Origin: an uncultured delta proteobacterium
GTDB lineage: Bacteria; Myxococcota_A; Polyangia; Fen-1088
Direction of reading: 5' to 3'
Assembly (NCBI GenBank): GCA_963767925.1
Contig: CAVYGB010000008.1
Coordinates: 1,536,001 to 1,600,000 of the forward strand
Length of the DNA: 64,000 nt
Shown here: in pieces, positions 4,778 through 29,284 of the stretch
Position numbering within the stretch: position 1 is the stretch's first letter
Layout: the number at the start of each line of letters is the position of its first letter
Position numbers and translations under genes: made by a program
The notes under the pieces: generated by a model
Databases searched by the model: none
Seen by the model: the letters and a program-made list of their open reading frames with translations, nothing else
Told to the model about the DNA's origin: nothing

Positions 4778-6852
4778 GACGAGGGACGGAGGTTCGAGCG
4801 CGGCTCGACGGGAGCCGCCACCTGCGAAGCGGTGATGGATCCGCCGGAGAACCGGGCCTCCTCGCGGCGGAGGTCGTCGGCGAAGAGGCGGTTCATGATC
4901 TCGGTCATCGCGATGGACCCCCGACCGACGTGCGGCGCCACCGCCGCCTGGAACTCGCCGGCCGACTGGTAACGCGCGCCGGGGTCGACCTGCAGCGCGC
5001 GTTCGAGGATGGCGCCGGCCGGCTCGGGCAAGGCCCGCACCCGCGCCAGGTCGTCCGGGCTGGGGCCGGTGGCAGCGTGGAGCAGGACCTCGTAGCTGCT
5101 GGTGCCCCGGTAGAGCGGCTCGCCGGCCAGGCAATAGAAGAGCACCAGCCCCATCGAGTAGAGGTCGGCCCGGGCGTCGACCTCCTGGCCGCGCGCCTGC
5201 TCGGGAGACATGAAGACGACGTTGCCCTTGACCACCCCGTGCTGGGTGCGGGTCACCCGGCCCTCCGCCTTGACGATTCCGAAGTCGAAGAGCTTGATCT
5301 CACCACGGGCCGAGACAAGGACGTTGTTGGGAGAGACGTCGCGGTGGACGATGCCGAGCGGCCGCCCGCCGCTCCCGGTCTTCGTGTGGGCGTACTCCAG
5401 GGCCTGGAGGGTCTCGTGAGCGGCGTACAGCGCGGCTGGCAGAGGCAAGCCCCCGCCGGCCATCTCCCGGTGCCGCGTTGTCACCCGGTCGAGGTCGCGG
5501 CCGAGGATGTATTCGGTGGCCAGGAAATATTCGTCGTCCACCTTGCCGAAATCGAGCACCGGCACGACGTTCGAGTGCACCAGGCTGGAGGCCATGTTCG
5601 CCTCGTCGATGAACTGCGCCACCACGGTCGGCTCCTTGAGCAGCTCTGGCCTCAGCCGCTTGATGACGAAGCGGCGGCGGAAGCCCTCGGCGCCGAAGAT
5701 GACCGCCGTGTAGACCTGGGCCATGCCCCCTTCCCCGAGCCGATCGAGCAGCATGTAGCGGCCGAAGGGCTGTTGCAGCGGGCCCTGGCCGGCGGCGGCC
5801 GGCGCCGGCGGGAGGGGCGTGAGGCCCACGCTAACCTCGGCCGGGGCGGGCTCGGGCTCCGGCTCCACGGACGCGGGGCGAACCGGCGCTGCCCTGGCGG
5901 GTCGACCCTCCCGGGTCACGGCGGCGTTGCTCCCGGCGCCGCCGCCGGTGCTGGCCTCCGCGAAGGCGGGGCTGCCGCCGCGCAGCCCGATGAACAGGGC
6001 CAGCAAGGCGATCAGCCCGCCCGCCGCCCAGATGATCGTCTGGGTGGTCCGGACCGAGGCGGCCGCCTGCGAGGCGGTCGCGCTGGCGTCGAACGTGACC
6101 CACAGCCGGTAGGCTCCCGTGACCGGGACGGCGGTGGCGGCCCAGGTGCCGTCTTCGGCGACGTGGGTGGTCGGATGCCCCCCCTGGGCGGCCTGCAGCA
6201 GGCGGACCTGATCGGCTCCCCGGGCCGAGCGGGCCAGCTCTCGCCCCCCCTCGGCCAGCAGGACGCTGCCGCCCGCCTGCTCCGCGATCTCGACGAGGGC
6301 CCGGCCATCGAGCGCCTTGGCCAGCACCAGCACGGCGGGCGTCTGCCGGTTGGGAACGGCGACCCGGGCGGCAGCCGCCGCCAGTGGGCTCCCCGCCGAT
6401 AGCCAGCCCGAGGAGACGCCATTTCCTCGTGCGGCCGCGACCAGGCGGTCCGCCCCGAGCTGACCGGGATCGGCCCCTTCGATCAGGCCGAGGTGCGCCT
6501 CGTCGGCCGAGACCGCGTAGACCCGGAACTCGTTGCGAAAGGGCTCCCACTCCGGCTCGCCCCGGAACCAGTCGGCCAGGGTGGCCTGCAGCTCCCCCTC
6601 GAGGCGGTGGTTGCGCAGGAGCGCGAGCTGGGCCCGGAGCTGCGGCAGCGCCGCCGCCGCCAGGGCCCGGGACTCCTGGCGCTGCAGATAAGCCCGCAGC
6701 GCTTCACTGGCCCGCAGCCGCACCGGCGTGCTCGCGGCTTCCGCGGCGTCGCGCGCCTCCTGCCGGGCGCTCTCCTGTACGCGGGGGGGCGAGGCCGCGG
6801 CGCCGACCAGCGCCGCGACCGCGATGAGCACGCTGACGACTCTACGCATCAC
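4774..6852 (-). CDS. Membrane Ser/Thr protein kinase with N-terminal extracytoplasmic domain
   Basis: Hanks motifs 'LGEGGMAQVY', 'VIKR', 'HRDVSPNN', 'DFG', 'MSPEQ', 'DLYS'; two hydrophobic segments flank a domain of about 250 aa. Confidence 0.92.
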   Translation of the reverse strand: MMRRVVSVLIAVAALVGAAASPPRVQESARQEARDAAEAASTPVRLRASEALRAYLQRQESRALAAAALPQLRAQLALLRNHRLEGELQATLADWFRGEPEWEPFRNEFRVYAVSADEAHLGLIEGADPGQLGADRLVAAARGNGVSSGWLSAGSPLAAAAARVAVPNRQTPAVLVLAKALDGRALVEIAEQAGGSVLLAEGGRELARSARGADQVRLLQAAQGGHPTTHVAEDGTWAATAVPVTGAYRLWVTFDASATASQAAASVRTTQTIIWAAGGLIALLALFIGLRGGSPAFAEASTGGGAGSNAAVTREGRPARAAPVRPASVEPEPEPAPAEVSVGLTPLPPAPAAAGQGPLQQPFGRYMLLDRLGEGGMAQVYTAVIFGAEGFRRRFVIKRLRPELLKEPTVVAQFIDEANMASSLVHSNVVPVLDFGKVDDEYFLATEYILGRDLDRVTTRHREMAGGGLPLPAALYAAHETLQALEYAHTKTGSGGRPLGIVHRDVSPNNVLVSARGEIKLFDFGIVKAEGRVTRTQHGVVKGNVVFMSPEQARGQEVDARADLYSMGLVLFYCLAGEPLYRGTSSYEVLLHAATGPSPDDLARVRALPEPAGAILERALQVDPGARYQSAGEFQAAVAPHVGRGSIAMTEIMNRLFADDLRREEARFSGGSITASQVAAPVEPRSNLRPSS

Positions 6853-6915
6853 GCGGCGACATCCTTCCCCCGTCCCACCGGTACGTCAACCGGTGGGATC
6901 TGGATCGGGGGGCGC

Positions 6916-7974
6916 CTACTTTTTCGCGACCAAGGTCTCGCCTTCGGTCAGCAGGGCGTTGTTGTCGCTGGCGACCCTGTACCAGCCCAGGGAGTGCTCG
7001 CTGCGCACGAGCACCTCGGGCGTGAGCGCCGGCGGGGGCGGCGCGTTGCCCGACGCCGGCGTCGGCAGGATCGGCACCTTGGTCCGGGCCAGCTCGGCCC
7101 AGCCGATCGGCCGGCCACGCGAGAAGTATTCGAGCCTGAGGTGGACGGTCGGCGCGCCGGAGGCGGGGTTCTCCCCCTTGCCGAGCACCTCGGTGGGGAA
7201 CAGCCCGAAGATCCGATCGTGCCAGTTCTTCAAGGTCGTGTCCGGCTTGTCGGGAGCCTCGGCCGGAGCCAGCCGGATACCCGGGAACTGGTCGATGCGG
7301 CTGCCGATGAACTCGCGCTTCTTGGTCCCCGCGATGATCACCACCCGGTCGACCTCCTCGATGCGGAAATTGTGCAGCCGGCGCTCCACCAAATTGGTGG
7401 TGGCCGCTTGCAGGTCGGTGAGGATCGGGCGATCGATGACGTACACCCGGTTGTCCTGAACGTCCCGCAGGTAGGGGTCGCTGCCACCGGGCGGGGCGGG
7501 CACGATCGCGAACCGGCGCTTGCCCGCCCGGGTCGTGACCTCGAGGAACCTCTTCGTCGTGTCGAGCCCCAGCTCCTTGGCCTTGCTGGCCTCGAGCACG
7601 CCGAGCGCCCGCTTGCCCCGCAAGGGAGCGAACTTGTCGAACAGCCGCTGGGCGGTCTCGCTGCCGCGGATGAGCCGCTCGGGCATCTTGAGCTGGACCC
7701 CCGGGTGTCCGGCCGGCATGCTGGCGCCCGTGTTGTCGTAGCCGCTCAGGCGGACGGTCACGAAGGGGCCGGCGCTGTCCCGGTCCTTGACCAGCTCGAC
7801 CCAGGTCTTGGCCTCCTGATCCTCGAACCGGATGCGCTGGAGGTCGTTCTTGGTGGCGTCGAGCACGAACACCTCGCCCGAGGTGAGCTCCGGCTCGCGC
7901 TGCCAGGTCGCGTAGGCGAACAGCAGGGCGAGGGCGGCGAGGGCGCCCTGGATGATGACGCTGCGGCTGCTCAT
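6916..7974 (-). CDS. DUF4340-like membrane-anchored protein of Gld-like ABC system
   Basis: N-terminal TM, 'ELGLD', position after GldG-like gene with overlapping start/stop. Confidence 0.6.
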   Translation of the reverse strand: MSSRSVIIQGALAALALLFAYATWQREPELTSGEVFVLDATKNDLQRIRFEDQEAKTWVELVKDRDSAGPFVTVRLSGYDNTGASMPAGHPGVQLKMPERLIRGSETAQRLFDKFAPLRGKRALGVLEASKAKELGLDTTKRFLEVTTRAGKRRFAIVPAPPGGSDPYLRDVQDNRVYVIDRPILTDLQAATTNLVERRLHNFRIEEVDRVVIIAGTKKREFIGSRIDQFPGIRLAPAEAPDKPDTTLKNWHDRIFGLFPTEVLGKGENPASGAPTVHLRLEYFSRGRPIGWAELARTKVPILPTPASGNAPPPPALTPEVLVRSEHSLGWYRVASDNNALLTEGETLVAKK

Positions 7975-22076: not shown

Positions 22077-22451
22077 ATGGACCATATTGGATTGATCGTT
22101 TCCGACGTGGAAGGTGCCAAGACCTTTTACAGGGCTTGCCTTTCGACGCTGGGCTGGGAGTTCCGTGACTACGGTGATCGCGGCGGCGTCTTTCGCAACA
22201 GCGGAAGTCCTCCCTTCTACGTAACCCCCGGGGCCGTCGACGCATCTGGGGCCCACTTCGCGTTTCGTGCCTCGTCCCGTGAACAGGTCGAAAACTTCCA
22301 TCGGGCGGCCATCATGCAGGGCGCGACAGACAACGGCGCCCCAGGATTGCGACCGGATTATGCCCAAGGCTACTACGCGGCGTTTGTCTTGGACGCCAAC
22401 AGAAACAACCTCGAAGCGGTTTATTACGAAGCCAAGGACGGCGACGGATAG
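22077..22451 (+). CDS. VOC/glyoxalase family protein
   Basis: 'MDHIGLIVSD', 'HFAFRA', 'DNGAPGLRPDY...YYAAFVLD...NNLEAV'; visibly lower GC than flanks. Confidence 0.88.
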   Translation: MDHIGLIVSDVEGAKTFYRACLSTLGWEFRDYGDRGGVFRNSGSPPFYVTPGAVDASGAHFAFRASSREQVENFHRAAIMQGATDNGAPGLRPDYAQGYYAAFVLDANRNNLEAVYYEAKDGDG

Positions 22452-22594
22452 CGAACGTTGGCCGCGCGCGCCGTTCGATCGTCGTGACCGTGGACGGCCG
22501 GTGGCGTCGTCGTCACGCTCGAGCGATTCGCAAAGGCGAGTCACCTGGCGCGGGTCAGCCCCAGCACCTCCGCGCCTACGACCAGGGCCCGACT

Positions 22595-22622
22595 AGTTGA
22601 CATAATATCTCTTATCGGACAC
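22595..22622 (-). other. dif: dif / XerCD recombination site
   Basis: Minus strand reads GTGTCCGATAA-GAGATA-TTATGTCAACT: 11-bp XerC arm, 6-bp spacer, 11-bp XerD arm (E. coli dif is GGTGCGCATAA-TGTATA-TTATGTTAAAT); AT-rich patch in intergenic DNA. Confidence 0.85.
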
Positions 22623-22686
22623 CTCGACTGTGGCAGCTAAGTAAGGAATGTCCGCGTAAGCGTCGCGTCAGATACAAGCGGCGGGC

Positions 22687-23862
22687 ATGGAGAAGCCCCC
22701 GGAGCTGGTCACGATGAGCACGAAAGAGATCGACCGGCTGGAGGTCATTCGGCGCGTGCTGGAGCACGGTCTCAAGCGAAGGAAGGCGGCTCAGCTGCTC
22801 GGAATCACGAGCCGGCAGGTGTGGCGGCTGTGCGAGACGTACAAGAGCGAAGGCCCAGCTGGGCTGGCGTCGAAGCGCCGAGGCCGTCCCAGCAATCGCC
22901 GCCTGTGGCAGGACCTGGAGAAGCGAACCGTCGAGCTCGTCCGAGAGCTATACGGCGACTTCGGGCCGACGCTGGCCCGGGAAGGCACCAACGGGCTCGG
23001 CCAGGGCGTGACCCAGTTCGGGCGGGCCCTGTCGGAGCTCAACATCGACAGCATCTGCGCGAACACGCCTCAGGCCAAAGGCCGGGTCGAGCGGATGAAT
23101 TCAACGCTGCAAGACCGGCTGGTGAAGAAGCTGCGCCTCCAGGGCATCAGCACCATGGAGGCCGGCAACGCCTTCGCGCCCAAGTACATGGAGGACTTCA
23201 ACCGCCGATTCGCCAAGCCGCCCCGCAACCCGCACGACGCGCACCGCCCCGTCGACGAAAAGGTGCTCGAGGACGTCTTTGCCTGGCGCGAGGAGCGCCG
23301 AATGACCCGCAATCTCGTTGTCCACTTCAAGCGCGTCTCGTACCTGGTCGAGCCGACACCCGAAGCGCTGAAACTCGGGGGCCAGAAGGTGCAGGTTCGC
23401 GAGTGGCAGGACTGGAGTGTCGAGATCAGCTGCGATGGAGTCCCCCTGCCCTACGCGGCCGTTGACAAGCAGCCTCACGTCGCGCCCGGGGACATCGTCG
23501 ACAATAAGCGCCTCGGCGCCATCCTCGTGACGATCCAGGACATGCAGACGAAGCGGGACGAGGCGCGACTCGCCTCGCCGAAGGTGAAGCTTGCGGACAA
23601 GGAGCGGCTCCGGGCCAAGCGCCTCGCCATGCTCAAGGAGAAGGCCTTGAAGGCCAAGGAGCCTCGACCCGCGCATCCTCCCAAGGTGGTGCGGCCCGAG
23701 CGAATCACGCTCGCTGGCGTCGACCCCAACAGCCCAGTTCAAGCGTTCCTCGATCGGTTCGCCGTCGAGCAGGCCGAGCGCCGGCGCAAGTACAACGAGG
23801 CGGGCAACGACCGCACGCGGGCCCGTGAGTTCATGGACGCACGCAGTCGACCGACCAGCTGA
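22687..23862 (+). pseudogene. ISNCY/IS1202-family transposase with in-frame deletion of the catalytic core
   Basis: HTH N-terminus 'MSTKEIDRLEVIRRV...SKRRGRPSNRR', then 'FGPTLARE' joined straight to 'GVTQFGRAL...PQAKGRVERMNSTLQDRL'; the usual 'QIDGS...DDAT...YSD' segment is absent. Confidence 0.85.
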
Positions 23863-23902
23863 GCAGTCGGAGGCCTGGCCAACCTTCGATGAGGCCACCA
23901 AA

Positions 23903-23970
23903 TGTGATCACCACTGGTTCGACTCTCGCGGGCCGGCGTGCGCTCTGCGCGTCTCTGTCGACGACGCAAA
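23903..23970 (+). pseudogene. Degenerate fragment of an IS1202-type transposase catalytic region
   Basis: Translates as 'CDHHWFDSRGPACALRVSVDDAKT', matching the family motif H-x-W-F-E-x-R-G-P-x-C-x-L-x-V-x-V-D-D-A-T. Confidence 0.7.
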
Positions 23971-24194
23971 GACGGAGTCGGCGTTTGCGCATCTCGGTCA
24001 TCGCGAACGCCGCGATCGGAGCATCGAGGACGGAGCGATCGGACCATTGTGAATGGGGGTCTGGTTGGAGCGAAGCGACGCTGAGAAGCGGACGTCTCTA
24101 CTTTAGCCGTAACAGACATGTAATAGCCGAAAGTGTACCTTTTACCCACTGTGCCCGTCCCCCCCCCCGGCTCGGAGTGACCAGGAACGCAACC

Positions 24195-26621
24195 ATGATG
24201 AACGACCTGCGCTACGCTTTTCGCCAGCTCGTCCGCGCGCCCGGCTTCTCGGCGCTCGCGCTTCTGACCATCGCCCTCGGCATCGGCGCCTGCACGGCCA
24301 TCTTCTCGGTGGTCTCGGGCGTGCTGCTGCGGCCGCTGCCCTATCCGGAATCCGACCGCCTGGTGGTGGTCCGCGAGACCAACTTTCCCAAGTTGCCCGA
24401 GTTCTCGGTGGCGCCGGGACAGTACTTTTCCTGGGTCGCGCAGTCTCGCAGCTGGGAGAGCCTCACCGCGGTCCGCCGCGCCTCCTACAACCTGACCGGA
24501 CGGGGCGAGCCTCAGCGGCTCCTGGGTCGCCGCGTGACCGCGAACTTTCTGCGCACGTTGCGGGTGGCGCCAGCGCTGGGGCGGGATCTCTCCCCCGAGG
24601 ACGAGGTGCCGGGTCACGAGCGGGTAGCCATCGTTAGTCACGGTTTCTGGCAGCGGCAGTTCGGCGGCCGGCCCGATGTGCTGGGGCAGACCATGCAGCT
24701 GGACGGTCAGCCGTTCACGATCGTGGGGGTCATGCCCGCCTCGTTTGGCTGGGTCGGGAAGGGCGTCGTGCCGCAGCCGGGCGCCCGCGCCGACCTCTAC
24801 ACGCCCGCCGCCTACACCGCCGACGAGCGCGGGCAACACGGGGCCCACTACATCGGCGTGTTCGGCCGCCTCAAGACGGGCGTCACCCTCGATCAGGCCC
24901 GCGCCGAAATGACGGTCATCGCCGATCGTCTGGCCAAGCAGCTCCCCGACACCAACAAGGGCTGGGGGGTAAAGCTGACGCCGATGCTGGAATCGGACGT
25001 GGGCGAAGCGCGGCCGGTGCTGCTGGCGCTCCTGGGCGCGGTCGGCTTTCTGCTCCTCATCGCCTGCGCCAACGTCGCCAACCTGCTCCTGATGCGGGCC
25101 ACGGCCCGCAGCAAGGAGATCGCCGTCCGGGGCGCTCTCGGCGCCGGACGCGCCCGGATCGTGCAACAGCTGCTCACCGAGAGCGTGGTGCTGTCACTGC
25201 TGGGCGGGCTGCTCGGGCTGGCCGTGGCCAAGGGCGGGCTGGGCGCGCTGCTGGCGCTCGCGTCGGAGACCCTGCCGCGCGCCGGTGAGGTCTCGGTCGA
25301 CCTGAGCGCGCTCGGTTTTTCAGTCGGGCTCGCTCTGATCACCGGCGTCATCTTCGGGCTGGTGCCCGCCGTCCAGATCACCCGCCTGGACCTGCAGCAG
25401 ACCCTGAAGCAGGGCGGGCGCGGTTCCACCGAGGGCGTCGCCCGGCACCGCCTGCACGGCGCACTGGTGGTCGCGGAGCTAGCCATCGCCCTGGTGCTGC
25501 TGGTCGGTGCCGGCCTGCTGATGCGCAGCTTCGTGCACCTGCAGCGGGTCGACGTTGGCTTCCGTCCGGAGAACGCCTTCGCCGTCGCCCTGCAATTGTC
25601 CGAGAAGAAATACGAGACCCCCTCGCAGAAAGTGTCCTTCGAGCAGCAGGCCAGCCGACGCCTGGCGGCTATCCCGGGCGTGTCGGCCGTGGGCGCCGCC
25701 CACGTGGTCCCGCTTTCGGGACCGGACCACAACCTAATCTTCACGATCAAGGGCCAGCCGCCCATCGCCCCGTCGGATCTACCGAGCACCAACTATTACG
25801 CCGCCAGCGGCGGCTACTTCCAGGCGATGGGCATCGGTCTCGTGCGCGGGCGCTTCTTTGCTGGCACCGACACCGCCGCTTCGGAGCCGGTGGCCATCAT
25901 CAACGAATCGATGTCCCGCAAGCATTTCCCGGGTGAAGATCCGATCGGCAGGTTCATCAATGTCACGGGCGATTCCGACAAGTGGCTGCGGATCGTCGGC
26001 GTCGTCCGGGACGTGCGCCAGTACGACCTGCACAGTGACGTCACTGAGCAGACGTACGAACCGCTGGCTCAGAACCCATTCGAGCTCCTGACGTTCATCG
26101 TGCGCACCTCCGGCGGCAGCGCCGGCCTGCCCGCCGCCATCCGCCGCGCCATGTACGACGTGGACCGCGACCAGCCGATCGCCACCATCCGTCCGCTGCA
26201 GGAACTGGTGGACGGAGCGATGGCCCGCCAGCGCTTCGCCACGTCGCTGTTCTCGGTCTTCTCGGCCACGGCGCTGCTACTCGCCGCCATCGGCATCTAC
26301 GGGGTGATGGCCTATTCCGTGCGCCTGCGGACCGGCGAGATCGGGGTACGCATCGCCCTCGGCGCCGGCAGCGGCGACGTCCTGGGCCTGGTCTTTCGCC
26401 AGGGCGGCCGCCTGCTGGCGCTTGGGCTGGCCGCGGGGATCGCGGGTGCGCTGGTGCTGACCCGCGTCCTCTCGACCCTCTTCTTCGGCGTCAGCGCCCA
26501 CGACCCGCTCACCTTCGCCGCCATCGCCGCGCTCCTCACCGTCACCGCCGCCCTGGCCTGCCTCTTCCCCGCCCGCCGGGCGATCGCCATCGATCCCATG
26601 ACCGCCTTGCGGTCGGAGTGA
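24195..26621 (+). CDS. ADOP-type duplicated ABC permease (MacB/FtsX family)
   Basis: 'DLRYAFRQL..PGF', 'LLIACANVANLLL', 'EIAVRGALGA', 'GIYGVMAYSV', C-terminal 'DPMTALRSE'. Confidence 0.92.
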   Translation: MMNDLRYAFRQLVRAPGFSALALLTIALGIGACTAIFSVVSGVLLRPLPYPESDRLVVVRETNFPKLPEFSVAPGQYFSWVAQSRSWESLTAVRRASYNLTGRGEPQRLLGRRVTANFLRTLRVAPALGRDLSPEDEVPGHERVAIVSHGFWQRQFGGRPDVLGQTMQLDGQPFTIVGVMPASFGWVGKGVVPQPGARADLYTPAAYTADERGQHGAHYIGVFGRLKTGVTLDQARAEMTVIADRLAKQLPDTNKGWGVKLTPMLESDVGEARPVLLALLGAVGFLLLIACANVANLLLMRATARSKEIAVRGALGAGRARIVQQLLTESVVLSLLGGLLGLAVAKGGLGALLALASETLPRAGEVSVDLSALGFSVGLALITGVIFGLVPAVQITRLDLQQTLKQGGRGSTEGVARHRLHGALVVAELAIALVLLVGAGLLMRSFVHLQRVDVGFRPENAFAVALQLSEKKYETPSQKVSFEQQASRRLAAIPGVSAVGAAHVVPLSGPDHNLIFTIKGQPPIAPSDLPSTNYYAASGGYFQAMGIGLVRGRFFAGTDTAASEPVAIINESMSRKHFPGEDPIGRFINVTGDSDKWLRIVGVVRDVRQYDLHSDVTEQTYEPLAQNPFELLTFIVRTSGGSAGLPAAIRRAMYDVDRDQPIATIRPLQELVDGAMARQRFATSLFSVFSATALLLAAIGIYGVMAYSVRLRTGEIGVRIALGAGSGDVLGLVFRQGGRLLALGLAAGIAGALVLTRVLSTLFFGVSAHDPLTFAAIAALLTVTAALACLFPARRAIAIDPMTALRSE

Positions 26622-26699
26622 GGACGGTCATGGCGGGCGGGCGCCTCGCTCGGGACCACTATGATCGTCCCCGCCGTCGTAGGAGGCCGGAGCCGACCC

Positions 26700-26900
26700 C
26701 ATGAACCGGCCAAGCGCCGCGGCCGGCCTCCCAAGGATGCCTCCCGAGTCGTTCTCGCCGGCGTGGACCCTCGCGGCCCCGTCCAAGCGTTCCTCGATCG
26801 CTTCGCCGTCGAACAGGCAGAGCGTCGAAGGAAACAAAACACCAAGAGCAACGATCGGAAGCTTGAGCGGGAGTTTGCTGCTGCCAAAGCCCGCGGCTCA
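26700..26900 (+). pseudogene. Second, diverged copy of the transposase C-terminal tail
   Basis: 'RVVLAGVDPRGPVQAFLDRFAVEQAERRRK' versus 'RITLAGVDPNSPVQAFLDRFAVEQAERRRK' at about 23700-23790. Confidence 0.8.
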
Positions 26901-27018
26901 GAACGGCACCCCCTCGGTGCGGCGCTGCTGACCCACAAGGACGCGTCGCATCCATGACCGGGGCATGACGACGATTTTCTGGAACCCGCGGGCGGGGTGC
27001 TGCGTGAAAGAGGCGAAA

Positions 27019-27621
27019 ATGGTGACGCTCCAGCCCACGGCCGACGCGCCCGGCGCGTCCGGTGAGCTCGACGAGATCACCCTCGCGCGCGCGCAGAAGG
27101 GGGAGCGGGTGGCGTGGGCCGCGCTGGTCGCGCACCACCAGGGCGCGGTCTTTGCGCTGATCTCTCGCATCCTCGGCCGCCGCCGCGGCAGCGCGGCCCA
27201 TCAGGACCTGGCGCAAGAGACGTTCCTGCGCGTATTCCGCGCCCTGCCCACCTTCGAGCGCAGGGGGCCGGCCCGGCTGTCGACCTGGATCCTGACCATC
27301 GCGACGCGGCTGGCCATCTCCGAGCTGCGGCGCCGACCGGTGGAGTACCTGCTGCCCGTCGACGTCGCCGATCCGGCGGCGCCGGACGACGGCGGCGCCG
27401 CGCGGCGCGGGCTGGCGCGGGCGCTGGAGAAAGCGATGGGCGAGCTGGCCGCGCCCTACCGCGCAGCCTTCGTGCTGCGCGAGCTGCACGATCTGTCACA
27501 CGAGGAGATCGCGAGGGCGCTGGACATTCCGGTAGGCACGGTCAAGTCGCGCCTGTCGCGCGCGCGGCAGGAGCTGGCGTCGGCGCTGCGCGATCTCGAG
27601 GGAGGCGGCAAGCATGGCTGA
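27019..27621 (+). CDS. ECF RNA polymerase sigma factor
   Basis: 'DLAQETFLRVFRAL', 'LSTWILTIA', 'LSHEEIA...GTVKSRLSRAR'. Confidence 0.92.
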   Translation: MVTLQPTADAPGASGELDEITLARAQKGERVAWAALVAHHQGAVFALISRILGRRRGSAAHQDLAQETFLRVFRALPTFERRGPARLSTWILTIATRLAISELRRRPVEYLLPVDVADPAAPDDGGAARRGLARALEKAMGELAAPYRAAFVLRELHDLSHEEIARALDIPVGTVKSRLSRARQELASALRDLEGGGKHG

Positions 27622-28999
27622 TAAGCCGACGGACGACGGTCTCGACCCCCGCTACCGCGAGGTGTGGAGGCCGGCGGCACCGCCGACGGGCTTCGTCGAT
27701 CGCGTGCTCGCGCTGACGGACGCCGAGGGGAGCGTGGCGGCGCGCAAGCGGCGATCGCTGTTCGGGCGCGGCGCCATCGCGATGGCGGTGCTGGCGGCGG
27801 CCGCCGCTCTGGTCATCGGCTATCGGCCGCGCGCGCGCGAGGGGGAGCATTTGGCGACGACCGCCCGCCTCTCGGTCCCGATCACCGAGCAAGCGGCGGC
27901 CGTGCTCGAGCCGCGCGCGCACCTGCGCTGGCGGTCGGCCGACGGTCGCGTGACCGTCGAGCAGGACGCCGGCGAGGTCTTTTATCGCGTCGACCGCGGC
28001 GTGGCCTTCGAGGTGAAGACGGCGGCGGGGTCGGTGCTGGTGAAGGGAACCTGTTTCAAAGTGGAGGTGAACGCGATGAGCCCGATTACTCACACTCTCA
28101 TCGGCGTCGTGTCGGGCATCGCGATCACCGCGTTGGCGGTGACGGTGTATGAAGGGATGGTCGAGGTGCACAACGAGCGCGGCGAGACCCGCCTCGGCCC
28201 GGGCGACCGCGGCGTGGCCGAGCCGGGCCAGGCCCCGACCGTGGCCCGGCCTGCGGGCGCCGCGCGGGCGAGCAACGTCCTCCGCCTGAGCGACGCGACT
28301 CTGGCGGCGCTCGGCGCGGACACGCGCGCCACCATCGCGGCCCTCGAGCAGAAGGCGGCGGCCCTCTCGTCCGAGCTGGCGGAGGCGCGGCGCCTGGTGC
28401 TGGAGGGGCCGCCCGACGAGGACGGCATCCCCAAGAAGAAGATTCACGACTTCACGCCCGAGGAGCTGGCCGTTCTCGCCCGTCGCTGCGAGATCCGCTA
28501 CGACGTGCCCAAGTTCCTCAGCAACGGCCGGATCGAGCTCAGAGGCCTTGGCGAGGCCAGCAACGGCATCAGCGAGGCGCAGGTGGCGCAGCTCAATCAG
28601 CACCTGCGGGAGTTCGCGCCCGACAACCTGGACCGCCTGCGCGCACTCTACCGGGAAGGGACAGGCGATCACGTCGGCGCCGCGACGCTGGCTCCGAAGG
28701 TCATGACGCAGGCCCTCTTCAAGCGCTACCCGCACGAGCTCGACCGCGCCCAGCAGCGTCTGTCGCTGGAGCGCGCTGGGCAGCCGGCGCCGCCGCCTGA
28801 TCCCGGCGGACCGAGCGTGGTCGAACGGCTGCTGCGATTGATCTTCGCCGCCGGCGACGAGTTGGAGCGACGGGGCGCGCAGGTGCTCGGCGCCGAGCGC
28901 ACCCACGAGCTGCGCCGCACGGGCGCAGGCTACGAGCCCGGCCTCATCCAGTATGGCTGCCCGAATGGTTCGACCTCGCGAATACTCGGCGCAGAGTAG
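27614..28999 (+). CDS. FecR-domain anti-sigma factor
   Basis: Overlaps the sigma gene stop; TM helix; 'GEVFYRV..FEVKT..GSVLVKGTCFKVEV', 'VTVYEGMVEV'. Confidence 0.8.
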   Translation: MADKPTDDGLDPRYREVWRPAAPPTGFVDRVLALTDAEGSVAARKRRSLFGRGAIAMAVLAAAAALVIGYRPRAREGEHLATTARLSVPITEQAAAVLEPRAHLRWRSADGRVTVEQDAGEVFYRVDRGVAFEVKTAAGSVLVKGTCFKVEVNAMSPITHTLIGVVSGIAITALAVTVYEGMVEVHNERGETRLGPGDRGVAEPGQAPTVARPAGAARASNVLRLSDATLAALGADTRATIAALEQKAAALSSELAEARRLVLEGPPDEDGIPKKKIHDFTPEELAVLARRCEIRYDVPKFLSNGRIELRGLGEASNGISEAQVAQLNQHLREFAPDNLDRLRALYREGTGDHVGAATLAPKVMTQALFKRYPHELDRAQQRLSLERAGQPAPPPDPGGPSVVERLLRLIFAAGDELERRGAQVLGAERTHELRRTGAGYEPGLIQYGCPNGSTSRILGAE

Positions 29000-29236
29000 A
29001 CGACGAGCGATCCTCCTGCCGCGCGGCAGCCGGCCCGGCGATGGTAGTACCAGGCGCAGCGCCACGCCATGGCCGCGAGCAGCAGCAGCCAGAGGACGTA
29101 GATGCCGAGGAGGCCGGTCTTGTGGCGCACGATCGCGGCGGCGAGGCCGAGGGCGTAGAAGGGACGAGGTGGAACAAGAAGGGGACGCGGCCGAAGATCG
29201 GAGCGTGGGCGAACACACTAGCCAGTCTCCCAACCG

Positions 29237-29284
29237 GACATTTCAACTTTGCTCAGAAGCAGACATTTCAACTTTGCCGTGACA
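29237..29284 (+). mobile_element. IS1202-type right end (two 16-bp GACATTTCAACTTTGC repeats, terminal ACA)
   Basis: Exact repeats at 29237-29252 and 29262-29277; reverse complement TGTCACGGCAAAGTTGAAATGTCTGC resembles the left end at 22629. Confidence 0.8.

Follow-up and report, generated by a model that had tools for sequence, protein, structure and literature searches.

The 64,000-nt stretch of DNA analysed here (the window, positions 1536001–1600000 of contig C8) most probably holds the chromosomal dif site of a member of the Myxococcota together with a decayed, dif-homing insertion sequence (IS) of the IS1202 family. We place the probability of this reading, taken jointly for the identity of dif, the membership of the element in the ISAba32/ISAjo2 subgroup, its insertion and its decay, at roughly 0.87. 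The transposase-proximal left end of the element faces dif and starts 6 bp beyond the XerC arm. The element is a decayed member of a known group of dif-homing IS, found in a phylum for which that group had no earlier description as far as our literature search reached, and not a new kind of system. Full-text literature searches, with the supplementary host list of the preprint of Siguier et al. (bioRxiv 10.1101/2022.12.17.520857) outside their scope, returned no paper linking the IS1202 family to Myxococcota. A previous sequence-only reading had interpreted the locus as a chromosomal dif targeted by the same IS1202 mechanism in a myxobacterium-like genome, an interpretation that our analysis supports; the catalytic death of the element, its missing target duplication and the further IS relics to its right had gone unnoticed. 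That reading gave the range 22595..22660, which takes in only dif, the spacer and the left inverted repeat; the element extends to 24114 and is a decayed copy (Table 1).

Table 1. Features of the dif locus and the adjacent DNA, in window coordinates
Feature	Position	Strand	Remarks
Chromosomal dif, 28 bp	22595..22622	-	XerD arm 22595-22605, central region 22606-22611, XerC arm 22612-22622; minus strand reads XerC to XerD
Spacer CTCGAC, 6 bp, from XerC arm to IS left end	22623..22628	.	5 or 6 bp in relatives
Defective IS1202-family IS, 1,486 bp, TGT...ACA termini	22629..24114	+	Paired ends and transposase family
Left inverted repeat (IRL), TGTGGCAGCTAAGTAAGGAATGTCCGC..., C at position 9	22629..22671	+	Motif ...A(A/T)TGTCC common to relatives
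Transposase ORF, 391 aa, open	22687..23862	+	N-terminal HTH and C-terminal parts retained
Right inverted repeat (IRR)	24072..24114	-	Flank GACATG; weak match to IS-end model at 24085-24109, E 0.029
MacB/FtsX-type permease gene	24195..26621	+	Pfam MacB_PCD and FtsX; between IS and IS relic
Second transposase relic, C-terminal 63 residues	26715..26897	+	64% identical to residues 327-389 of the first; in ORF 26661-26957
Orphan IS1202-type right end, well formed, two AAAGTTGAAATGTC repeats	29231..29284	-	Body points towards dif; nhmmer E 3e-11 in window

dif is the site at which XerC and XerD, driven by FtsK, resolve chromosome dimers. On the plus strand, the 28-bp site reads AGTTGACATAA-TATCTC-TTATCGGACAC and is followed by CTCGAC and then, from 22629, by TGTGGCAGC...; the minus-strand reading of the site is GTGTCCGATAA-GAGATA-TTATGTCAACT. 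The XerC and XerD arms were assigned by their resemblance to the targets in Table 8 of Harmer et al. (PMC10132070). The assembly comprises 9.34 Mb in 13 contigs, with a G+C content of 71% and a completeness rating of 84%. The core ATAA-N6-TTAT(G) occurs nowhere else on either strand of the 13 contigs (9,336,993 bases), and no second 28-mer within 9 mismatches of dif exists on either strand of any contig. Furthermore, the 27-mer AGTTGACATAATATCTNTTATCGGACA, searched with at most 3 mismatches, is single-copy in 31 of the 41 family genomes sampled, representing 16 of 19 genera, and a reversed-pattern control of the 27-mer yields 0 matches in the 41 family genomes. The expectation of a single best dif in the genome is borne out by these counts, and we take positions 22595–22622 to be the conserved chromosomal dif of the family.

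The strand polarity of contig C8, which is 3.3 Mb long, switches at dif, located at 1.5586 Mb. Strand-skewed 8-mers were sought in the far arms of the contig alone (0–1.0 Mb and 2.1–3.3 Mb), where the top word is GGGCAGGG (272 versus 107 occurrences, z 8.5), which we take to be a variant of GGGNAGGG, the KOPS word of E. coli. Counted along the entire contig, GGGNAGGG occurs 410 times on the plus strand and 144 times on the minus strand left of dif, and 174 and 389 times, respectively, right of dif; its cumulative maxima fall at C8:1.538–1.566 Mb, depending on the variant counted, and dif lies inside this range. The cumulative GC skew of the contig is weak and broad, with a plateau at 1.2–1.6 Mb, a maximum at 1.40 Mb and a drop thereafter, and is consistent with a terminus, albeit imprecisely, its maximum lying ~160 kb off dif. 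The inflection of polarity foreseen by the sequence-only reading is therefore seen in the strand switch of GGGNAGGG, with GC skew giving a weak and broad signal. As an observation in its own right, no 8-mer family is more strand-skewed than GGGNAGGG, chiefly in the forms GGGCAGGG and GGGGAGGG; this skew and the change of strand at dif make it a candidate FtsK-orienting word of this myxobacterial lineage. The dif consensus AGTTGACATAA-TATCTN-TTATCGGACA and the KOPS-like word GGGNAGGG can be used for this uncultured myxobacterial family and should aid the placing of replication termini in draft genomes.

The genome encodes an XerD protein that scores above the curated cut-off (338.5 versus 329.6 bits) and an FtsK gamma domain, likewise above its cut-off (102 bits). 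The XerD protein shares 80% identity with its counterpart in a "Myxococcota bacterium" MAG and 65–71% with those of "Polyangia" and "Myxococcales" MAGs, in agreement with the proposed myxobacterium-like host. No protein of the genome reaches the cut-off of the XerC model, the best non-XerD candidate scoring 178 against 335 bits. This candidate recombinase is encoded at G000:C10:1827287–1828198; the second Xer partner of the lineage is diverged or not recognised.

The DNA next to the spacer is bounded by paired IS ends. The right end was located by aligning the reverse complement of the left end to the DNA after the transposase ORF, and it terminates in ACA at 24114. The local alignment of IRL and IRR has a score of 30, which is equalled by 1 of 1,500 random 538-nt stretches of the same contig. 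Because the TGT at 22629 is paired with an inverted repeat ending in ACA at 24114, it represents a real IS end. Both ends begin with 5′-TGT (TGTGGCAGC on the left, TGTTACGGC on the right), and position 9 of the left end is C, as it is in every left end shown in our end alignment. The true ends are absent from the 25 longest pairs of a generic inverted-repeat scan of 22400–24400, and the IS-end model misses the left end because of its divergence (E 3.7).

In Pfam, the ORF between the two ends matches HTH domains only. It also passes the cut-off of the NCBIfam model NF033594 (ISNCY family transposase; 258.7 bits, cut-off 250), with a match split in two by the absence of profile positions ~100–207. 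Alignment with full-length relatives, ISKpn21 and ISAjo2 reveals that ~123 residues have been deleted in frame after residue 99, with the junction at ~22983/22984. The deletion takes the QIDG, VDDAT and YSDK motifs, and with them two of the three DDE residues and two extra aspartates, and leaves the glutamate of the GRVER motif (residue 135) and the glutamine at +7. In the alignment, full-length relatives keep the whole DDE triad, the extra aspartates and the glutamine, in line with the main text of Siguier et al., which ascribes to the IS1202 family a DDE triad, two more conserved aspartates and a glutamine seven residues past the glutamate (bioRxiv 10.1101/2022.12.17.520857). Since two of the three catalytic residues are gone, the copy is catalytically dead, and since Glu135 and the glutamine at +7 are retained and the full-length relatives are complete, the element is a dead member of the IS1202 family and not a non-member. 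Together, the sequence, the paired IRR and the match to NF033594 confirm the arrangement originally described, namely a 28-bp dif-like site, CTCGAC and a TGT-initiated IS end.

A full-length relative from the sister genus, a member of the clade, shares 48–50% identity with plasmid-borne transposases of the ISKpn21, ISLad2, Rhizobium and Acinetobacter types and 45% with that of ISEsa1. These identities, together with the NF033594 score, bear out the assignment of the transposase to the IS1202 family. In a tree of 26 proteins (L044, identical to L037, and the partial L011, L017, L020 and L025 were dropped; an Acinetobacter nosocomialis match, L146, had no ORF of at least 330 aa and was replaced by ISAjo2 of pAF-401), this copy falls in a clade with support 100/99 that consists of elements from the same family of genomes and from a Myxococcales MAG. 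ISEsa1 lies across the midpoint root, and the myxobacterial clades interleave with ISKpn21, ISAjo2 and a Rhizobium IS along a backbone without resolution, in a reference set without the ISTde1 and IS1202 subgroups. The main text of Siguier et al. (bioRxiv 10.1101/2022.12.17.520857) describes an insertion of ~30 aa before the catalytic domain in the IS1202 subgroup and one of 5–10 aa between the second Asp and the Glu in the ISTde1 subgroup. At these positions, full-length clade members differ from ISAjo2 and ISKpn21 by gaps of only 1–2 residues, in a comparison made without ISTde1 and IS1202 references and over a region mostly deleted in the present copy. In addition, C at left-end position 9, given in the same main text (bioRxiv 10.1101/2022.12.17.520857) as a mark of the ISAba32 subgroup, is present here. 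The element very probably belongs to the dif-homing branch of the IS1202 family.

To obtain relatives of the element, we used three sources: a scan of public genomes, which gave four loci, mostly in Myxococcales MAGs; 401 genomes of the phylum, 20 of which, including this one, match at E ≤ 1e-20; and 31 close relatives, eight of which have a match. Outside each IS end, the 28-base stretch at a distance of 5 or 6 bp was scored against the dif arms of this genome, in either orientation and out of 22; at random positions, the 99th percentile of this score is 11/22 and the 99.9th percentile is 13. In the phylum and family samples and the four MAG loci, a score of at least 12 is reached by 24 of 30 left ends and one of at least 14 by 18 of 30, versus 1 of 21 and 0 of 21 right ends, respectively; these counts overstate independence, as the genomes are related and some same-genus dif-adjacent copies may be one inherited insertion. 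The left-end count omits the copy in this window and one spurious internal match, and includes three ends labelled "other" by the script, which are followed by the transposase gene. Relatives of the element home to dif in Myxococcota, in favour of the sequence-only reading.

The same preference is visible from the side of dif. An IS-end model, a small profile made from 31 ends, finds matches beside the XerC arm at 9 of 30 dif loci of the family (eight at a distance of 5–6 bp and one at 9 bp; one is a right-end stub), and the copy in this window, recognised by its paired ends and not by the model, makes a tenth. Four further loci have TGT-initiated stubs discerned by eye, and the other 16 of the 30 have nothing, so that 10 to 14 of 30 family dif sites carry an IS end or stub. 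This pattern agrees with a remark in the preprint that partial copies retain the left end at an unchanged distance (bioRxiv 10.1101/2022.12.17.520857). In a genome of the same genus (G401), a dif identical to ours at 26 of 28 positions is followed by TCGGC (5 bp) and the left end of an IS of a different lineage, which is 54% identical in its N-terminal part, has a different end sequence and contains stops. In a genome of the sister genus (G403), the same dif is followed by ATCGG (5 bp) and a third kind of left end. Insertions of distinct lineages at the same dif are clearly independent events. No empty site is offered by the same-genus genome, where dif is occupied by the other lineage and the flanks cannot be aligned, and a search for right ends and duplications at four extended family dif loci found no right ends.

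As a positive control, we analysed 80 loci from an alignment-based scan with a taxon-neutral test, which asks for ATAA-N6-TTAT in register. The loci are mostly from Burkholderia, Paraburkholderia, Alphaproteobacteria and Gammaproteobacteria, with a few from "Deltaproteobacteria" or Myxococcales MAGs, Anaerolineae, one Verrucomicrobiia MAG and one Pyrinomonadaceae MAG. Of 62 left ends, 31 score at least 7 out of 8, and most of the others belong to the second or third copy in a tandem array; none of the 25 right ends exceeds 4, and a score of at least 7 is reached at 16 of 20,000 random positions. For named genomes such as those of Burkholderia and Rhizobium, the approach reproduces the pattern that has been published. 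Three relatives from Chloroflexota (Anaerolineae; L007, L203 and L205) have ends of the family type and no recognisable dif-like site 4–6 bp from the left end.

The copy in the window has no 5–6-bp target duplication, its flanks CTCGAC (left) and GACATG (right) having only GAC in common, and none of seven older relatives with both ends has a perfect direct repeat. The sister-genus genome G403, with about nine IS copies, is informative in this respect. Three of its five complete recent copies are flanked by perfect repeats, namely ATTTG, AGAAT and, in a tandem of the form dif-like site-GCGGCG-IS-GCGGCG-second IS, GCGGCG; a fourth copy has TCTGA on its right, matching the flank of the XerC-like arm at an unoccupied site. 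Because these recent copies carry perfect repeats, we infer that the clade makes 5–6-bp target duplications, and that older copies, including this one, have lost them. Recombination between copies is suggested by Siguier et al. (bioRxiv 10.1101/2022.12.17.520857) as a cause of such losses.

Several further arrangements are seen in the relatives. Tandem head-to-tail copies are present at G403:C14 (L044), at G403:C11 (L059) and in Paraburkholderia fungorum (L176); among these sites, one pair is parted by TT only and one three-copy array has the same 5–6 bases between its members. In the sister-genus genome G403 (L152), there are more than 30 secondary dif-like sites, such as CGATAAAATATGTTCTGTCAAC, located at C11:94–199 kb, C13:5–31 kb, C14:19–50 kb and C4:120–129 kb, several of which hold IS1202-type insertions. 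In the one stretch examined, two dif-like sites fall within identical direct repeats of 106 nt on either side of a 3.7-kb segment, which contains an ORF of 1,167 aa without a Pfam family. This array recalls the xrs or dif-module arrays known from Acinetobacter plasmids. At G253:C58 (L029), a full-length IS lies between inverted dif-like sites, with each XerC-like arm 5–6 bp from an IS end, a layout that resembles a dif module holding the IS alone. Moreover, in one sublineage of the same phylum, the left end lies 5–6 bp from an XerD-like arm (G015:C104, L151; G318:C58, L018; G015:C86, L019; G298:C177, L023); the site at G015:C104 is a canonical ATGTCCGATAA-GTATTA-TTATGTCAAGT, and close relatives of the XerD-side IS (L021 and L160) lie on the XerC side. 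The main text of Siguier et al. (bioRxiv 10.1101/2022.12.17.520857) and the portion of Harmer et al. (PMC10132070) drawn on here report XerC-side insertion alone. XerD-side insertions, an IS between inverted dif-like sites and a cassette array bounded by dif-like repeats would bear on how the transposase recognises its target, and also on whether Xer-site gene cassettes exist outside Acinetobacter.

The DNA to the right of the element contains further IS1202-type relics. The C-terminal tail of a second transposase lies directly upstream of an ECF sigma factor gene, which is followed by a FecR-like gene. Beyond these, 5.2 kb past the dead IS, the orphan right end, with the flank GTCACG, is the sole genome-wide match to the IS-end model; no left end that would partner it was found. 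Searches of the genome for further IS copies at the DNA level found none save the short tail relic, and protein searches gave no match other than the element and the tail. The IS1202-type material detected in 9.3 Mb is thus confined to within 6.7 kb of dif, on the XerC side, and the presence of relics on the same side suggests that dif has been hit more than once. We rejected the idea that GACA-TGTAATAGCCGAAAGTG..., just right of the IS, is what remains of an earlier left end, as its likeness is weak and the IS-end model does not match it. The ECF sigma gene (26955–27643) is 93% identical at the DNA level to positions 6412–7099 of G412:C142, from another genus of the family (L154, L264). The similarity sets in abruptly at 26955, immediately beyond the transposase relic; the G412 gene lies 1.17 kb from its dif, compared with 4.3 kb here, and no IS end is found beside the G412 dif. 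The sigma gene could be native dif flank or shared cargo.

Two alternative explanations concern the relation between the IS and dif. The least probable of those we weighed, to which we give hardly any credence, is that an element without target preference landed beside dif by chance. Such an event would sit well with the target duplication not being preserved at this copy, and with L054, L056, L039, L040 and the Anaerolineae loci, whose left ends have no recognisable dif-like site. It is at odds with the 24 of 30 left ends, as against 1 of 21 right ends, that abut dif-like sites at a fixed distance of 5–6 bp, and with the occurrence of three IS lineages on the same conserved dif in three family genomes. 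Only slightly less improbable is that an island or integrated element carries the 28-mer as a secondary Xer site (xrs), the real dif lying elsewhere, perhaps in unassembled DNA. Because the assembly is in 13 contigs and is rated 84% complete, a second dif-like site could lie in the missing DNA; in addition, IS relics and genes are interspersed to the right of the site, where KOPS orientation is mixed, and the sister genus has its more than 30 secondary dif-like sites. Against this, the 9.34 Mb at hand contain no other dif-like site, the same sequence is single-copy across 31 of 41 family genomes and 16 of 19 genera, and the site sits at the polarity switch of a 3.3-Mb contig. The reading of the site as the chromosomal dif, with a homing IS beside it, is preferred.

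Two others concern the nature of the element itself. The core-less, open transposase gene might have been kept as a DNA-binding protein, for example as an inhibitor shielding dif from insertions, an idea suggested by a frame that is open over 391 codons with intact HTH and C-terminal parts. We consider it improbable, since long open frames are common at 71% G+C (a 10-kb stretch is overlapped by 48 ORFs of 80 aa or more), a deletion has a one-in-three chance of staying in frame, other relics contain stops, and no orthologue with the same deletion was found in this genome, the 401-genome phylum sample or the 31 close relatives. A better candidate, though still unlikely, is a single element of ~6.66 kb that runs, or once ran, from the left end at 22629 to the orphan right end at 29284; the permease and sigma/anti-sigma genes would be its cargo and the 1,486-bp unit only a part of it. 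The orphan end is well formed and faces dif, the transposase tail lies directly upstream of the sigma gene, and cargo-carrying members of the subgroup are known from the main text of Siguier et al. (bioRxiv 10.1101/2022.12.17.520857). The 1,486-bp unit, however, has a right end of its own, the flanks CTCGAC and GTCACG differ, and the 93%-identical sigma gene 1.17 kb from the G412 dif, where there is no IS end, indicates that this gene may be native flank. We retain the reading of a decayed 1,486-bp IS beside dif.

From these observations and the literature, the history of the locus can be sketched as follows. The IS would have entered 6 bp beyond the XerC arm, its transposase-proximal left end towards dif, and left the 28-bp site intact. 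Its DDE transposase would have bound repeated motifs in both ends, as proposed for the family, and may have been steered to the target by the Xer-bound site, probably via XerC, by analogy with the targeting discussed in the literature. Insertion would have created a 5–6-bp target duplication. The copy would later have decayed, through the in-frame deletion of its catalytic core and through changes that left the duplication no longer recognisable. A more speculative proposal, which we regard as possible and rather doubtful, is that the family dif acts as a chronic landing pad, hit repeatedly by IS1202-type elements, some with cargo, that decay from the far end and leave left-end stubs. On this view, the 6.7 kb from dif to 29284 would be an island assembled by such insertions, to which the MacB-type permease and perhaps also the sigma/anti-sigma pair would belong, and the XerD-side sublineage would hint that homing may read the whole Xer–dif complex and not XerC alone.

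The locus extends dif-homing by IS1202-family elements from Proteobacteria and their plasmids to chromosomes of Myxococcota. Such homing is frequent in this family of genomes, where a third to nearly half of the examined dif sites carry an element or stub.

The closest known systems are the elements of the ISAba32/ISAjo2 subgroup (ISAjo2, ISAba32, ISKpn21, ISBcen27, ISRel26 and ISMex6), which have a transposase of the same family. They share with the present element and its relatives the TGT/ACA ends, the C at left-end position 9, the repeated transposase-binding motifs, a left end that faces the XerC arm at 5–6 bp, stubs that keep the left end, tandem successive insertions and, in recent relatives, 5–6-bp duplications. 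The dif described here also resembles the Burkholderia targets of Table 8 of Harmer et al., AATGTCGATAA-TGTTGA-TTATGTCAAAT (PMC10132070). The differences are the host, a member of the Myxococcota, the loss of the catalytic core and of the duplication in this copy, and the presence in the same phylum of one sublineage that is also found on the XerD side. With respect to hosts, the main text of the preprint lists mainly gamma- and beta- and some alphaproteobacteria for the dif-homing subgroup and gives Deltaproteobacteria for the ISTde1 subgroup only (bioRxiv 10.1101/2022.12.17.520857).

A more distant likeness is to Tn7. According to Harmer et al. (PMC10132070), the family transposase models on TnsB, the TGT/ACA ends have several binding sites, and insertion is oriented beside a conserved chromosomal site that is not destroyed. 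Unlike Tn7, the element described here is a single-gene IS without TnsA, TnsC, TnsD or TnsE, and its target is an Xer site and not glmS. Finally, IMEX elements and dif modules, such as CTX-type phages and the pdif modules of Acinetobacter, likewise exploit dif or dif-like sites and pile DNA beside them. They differ in mechanism, in that they rely on strand exchange by XerC/D inside the site, whereas the element described here would have used its own DDE enzyme, 5–6 bp outside it.
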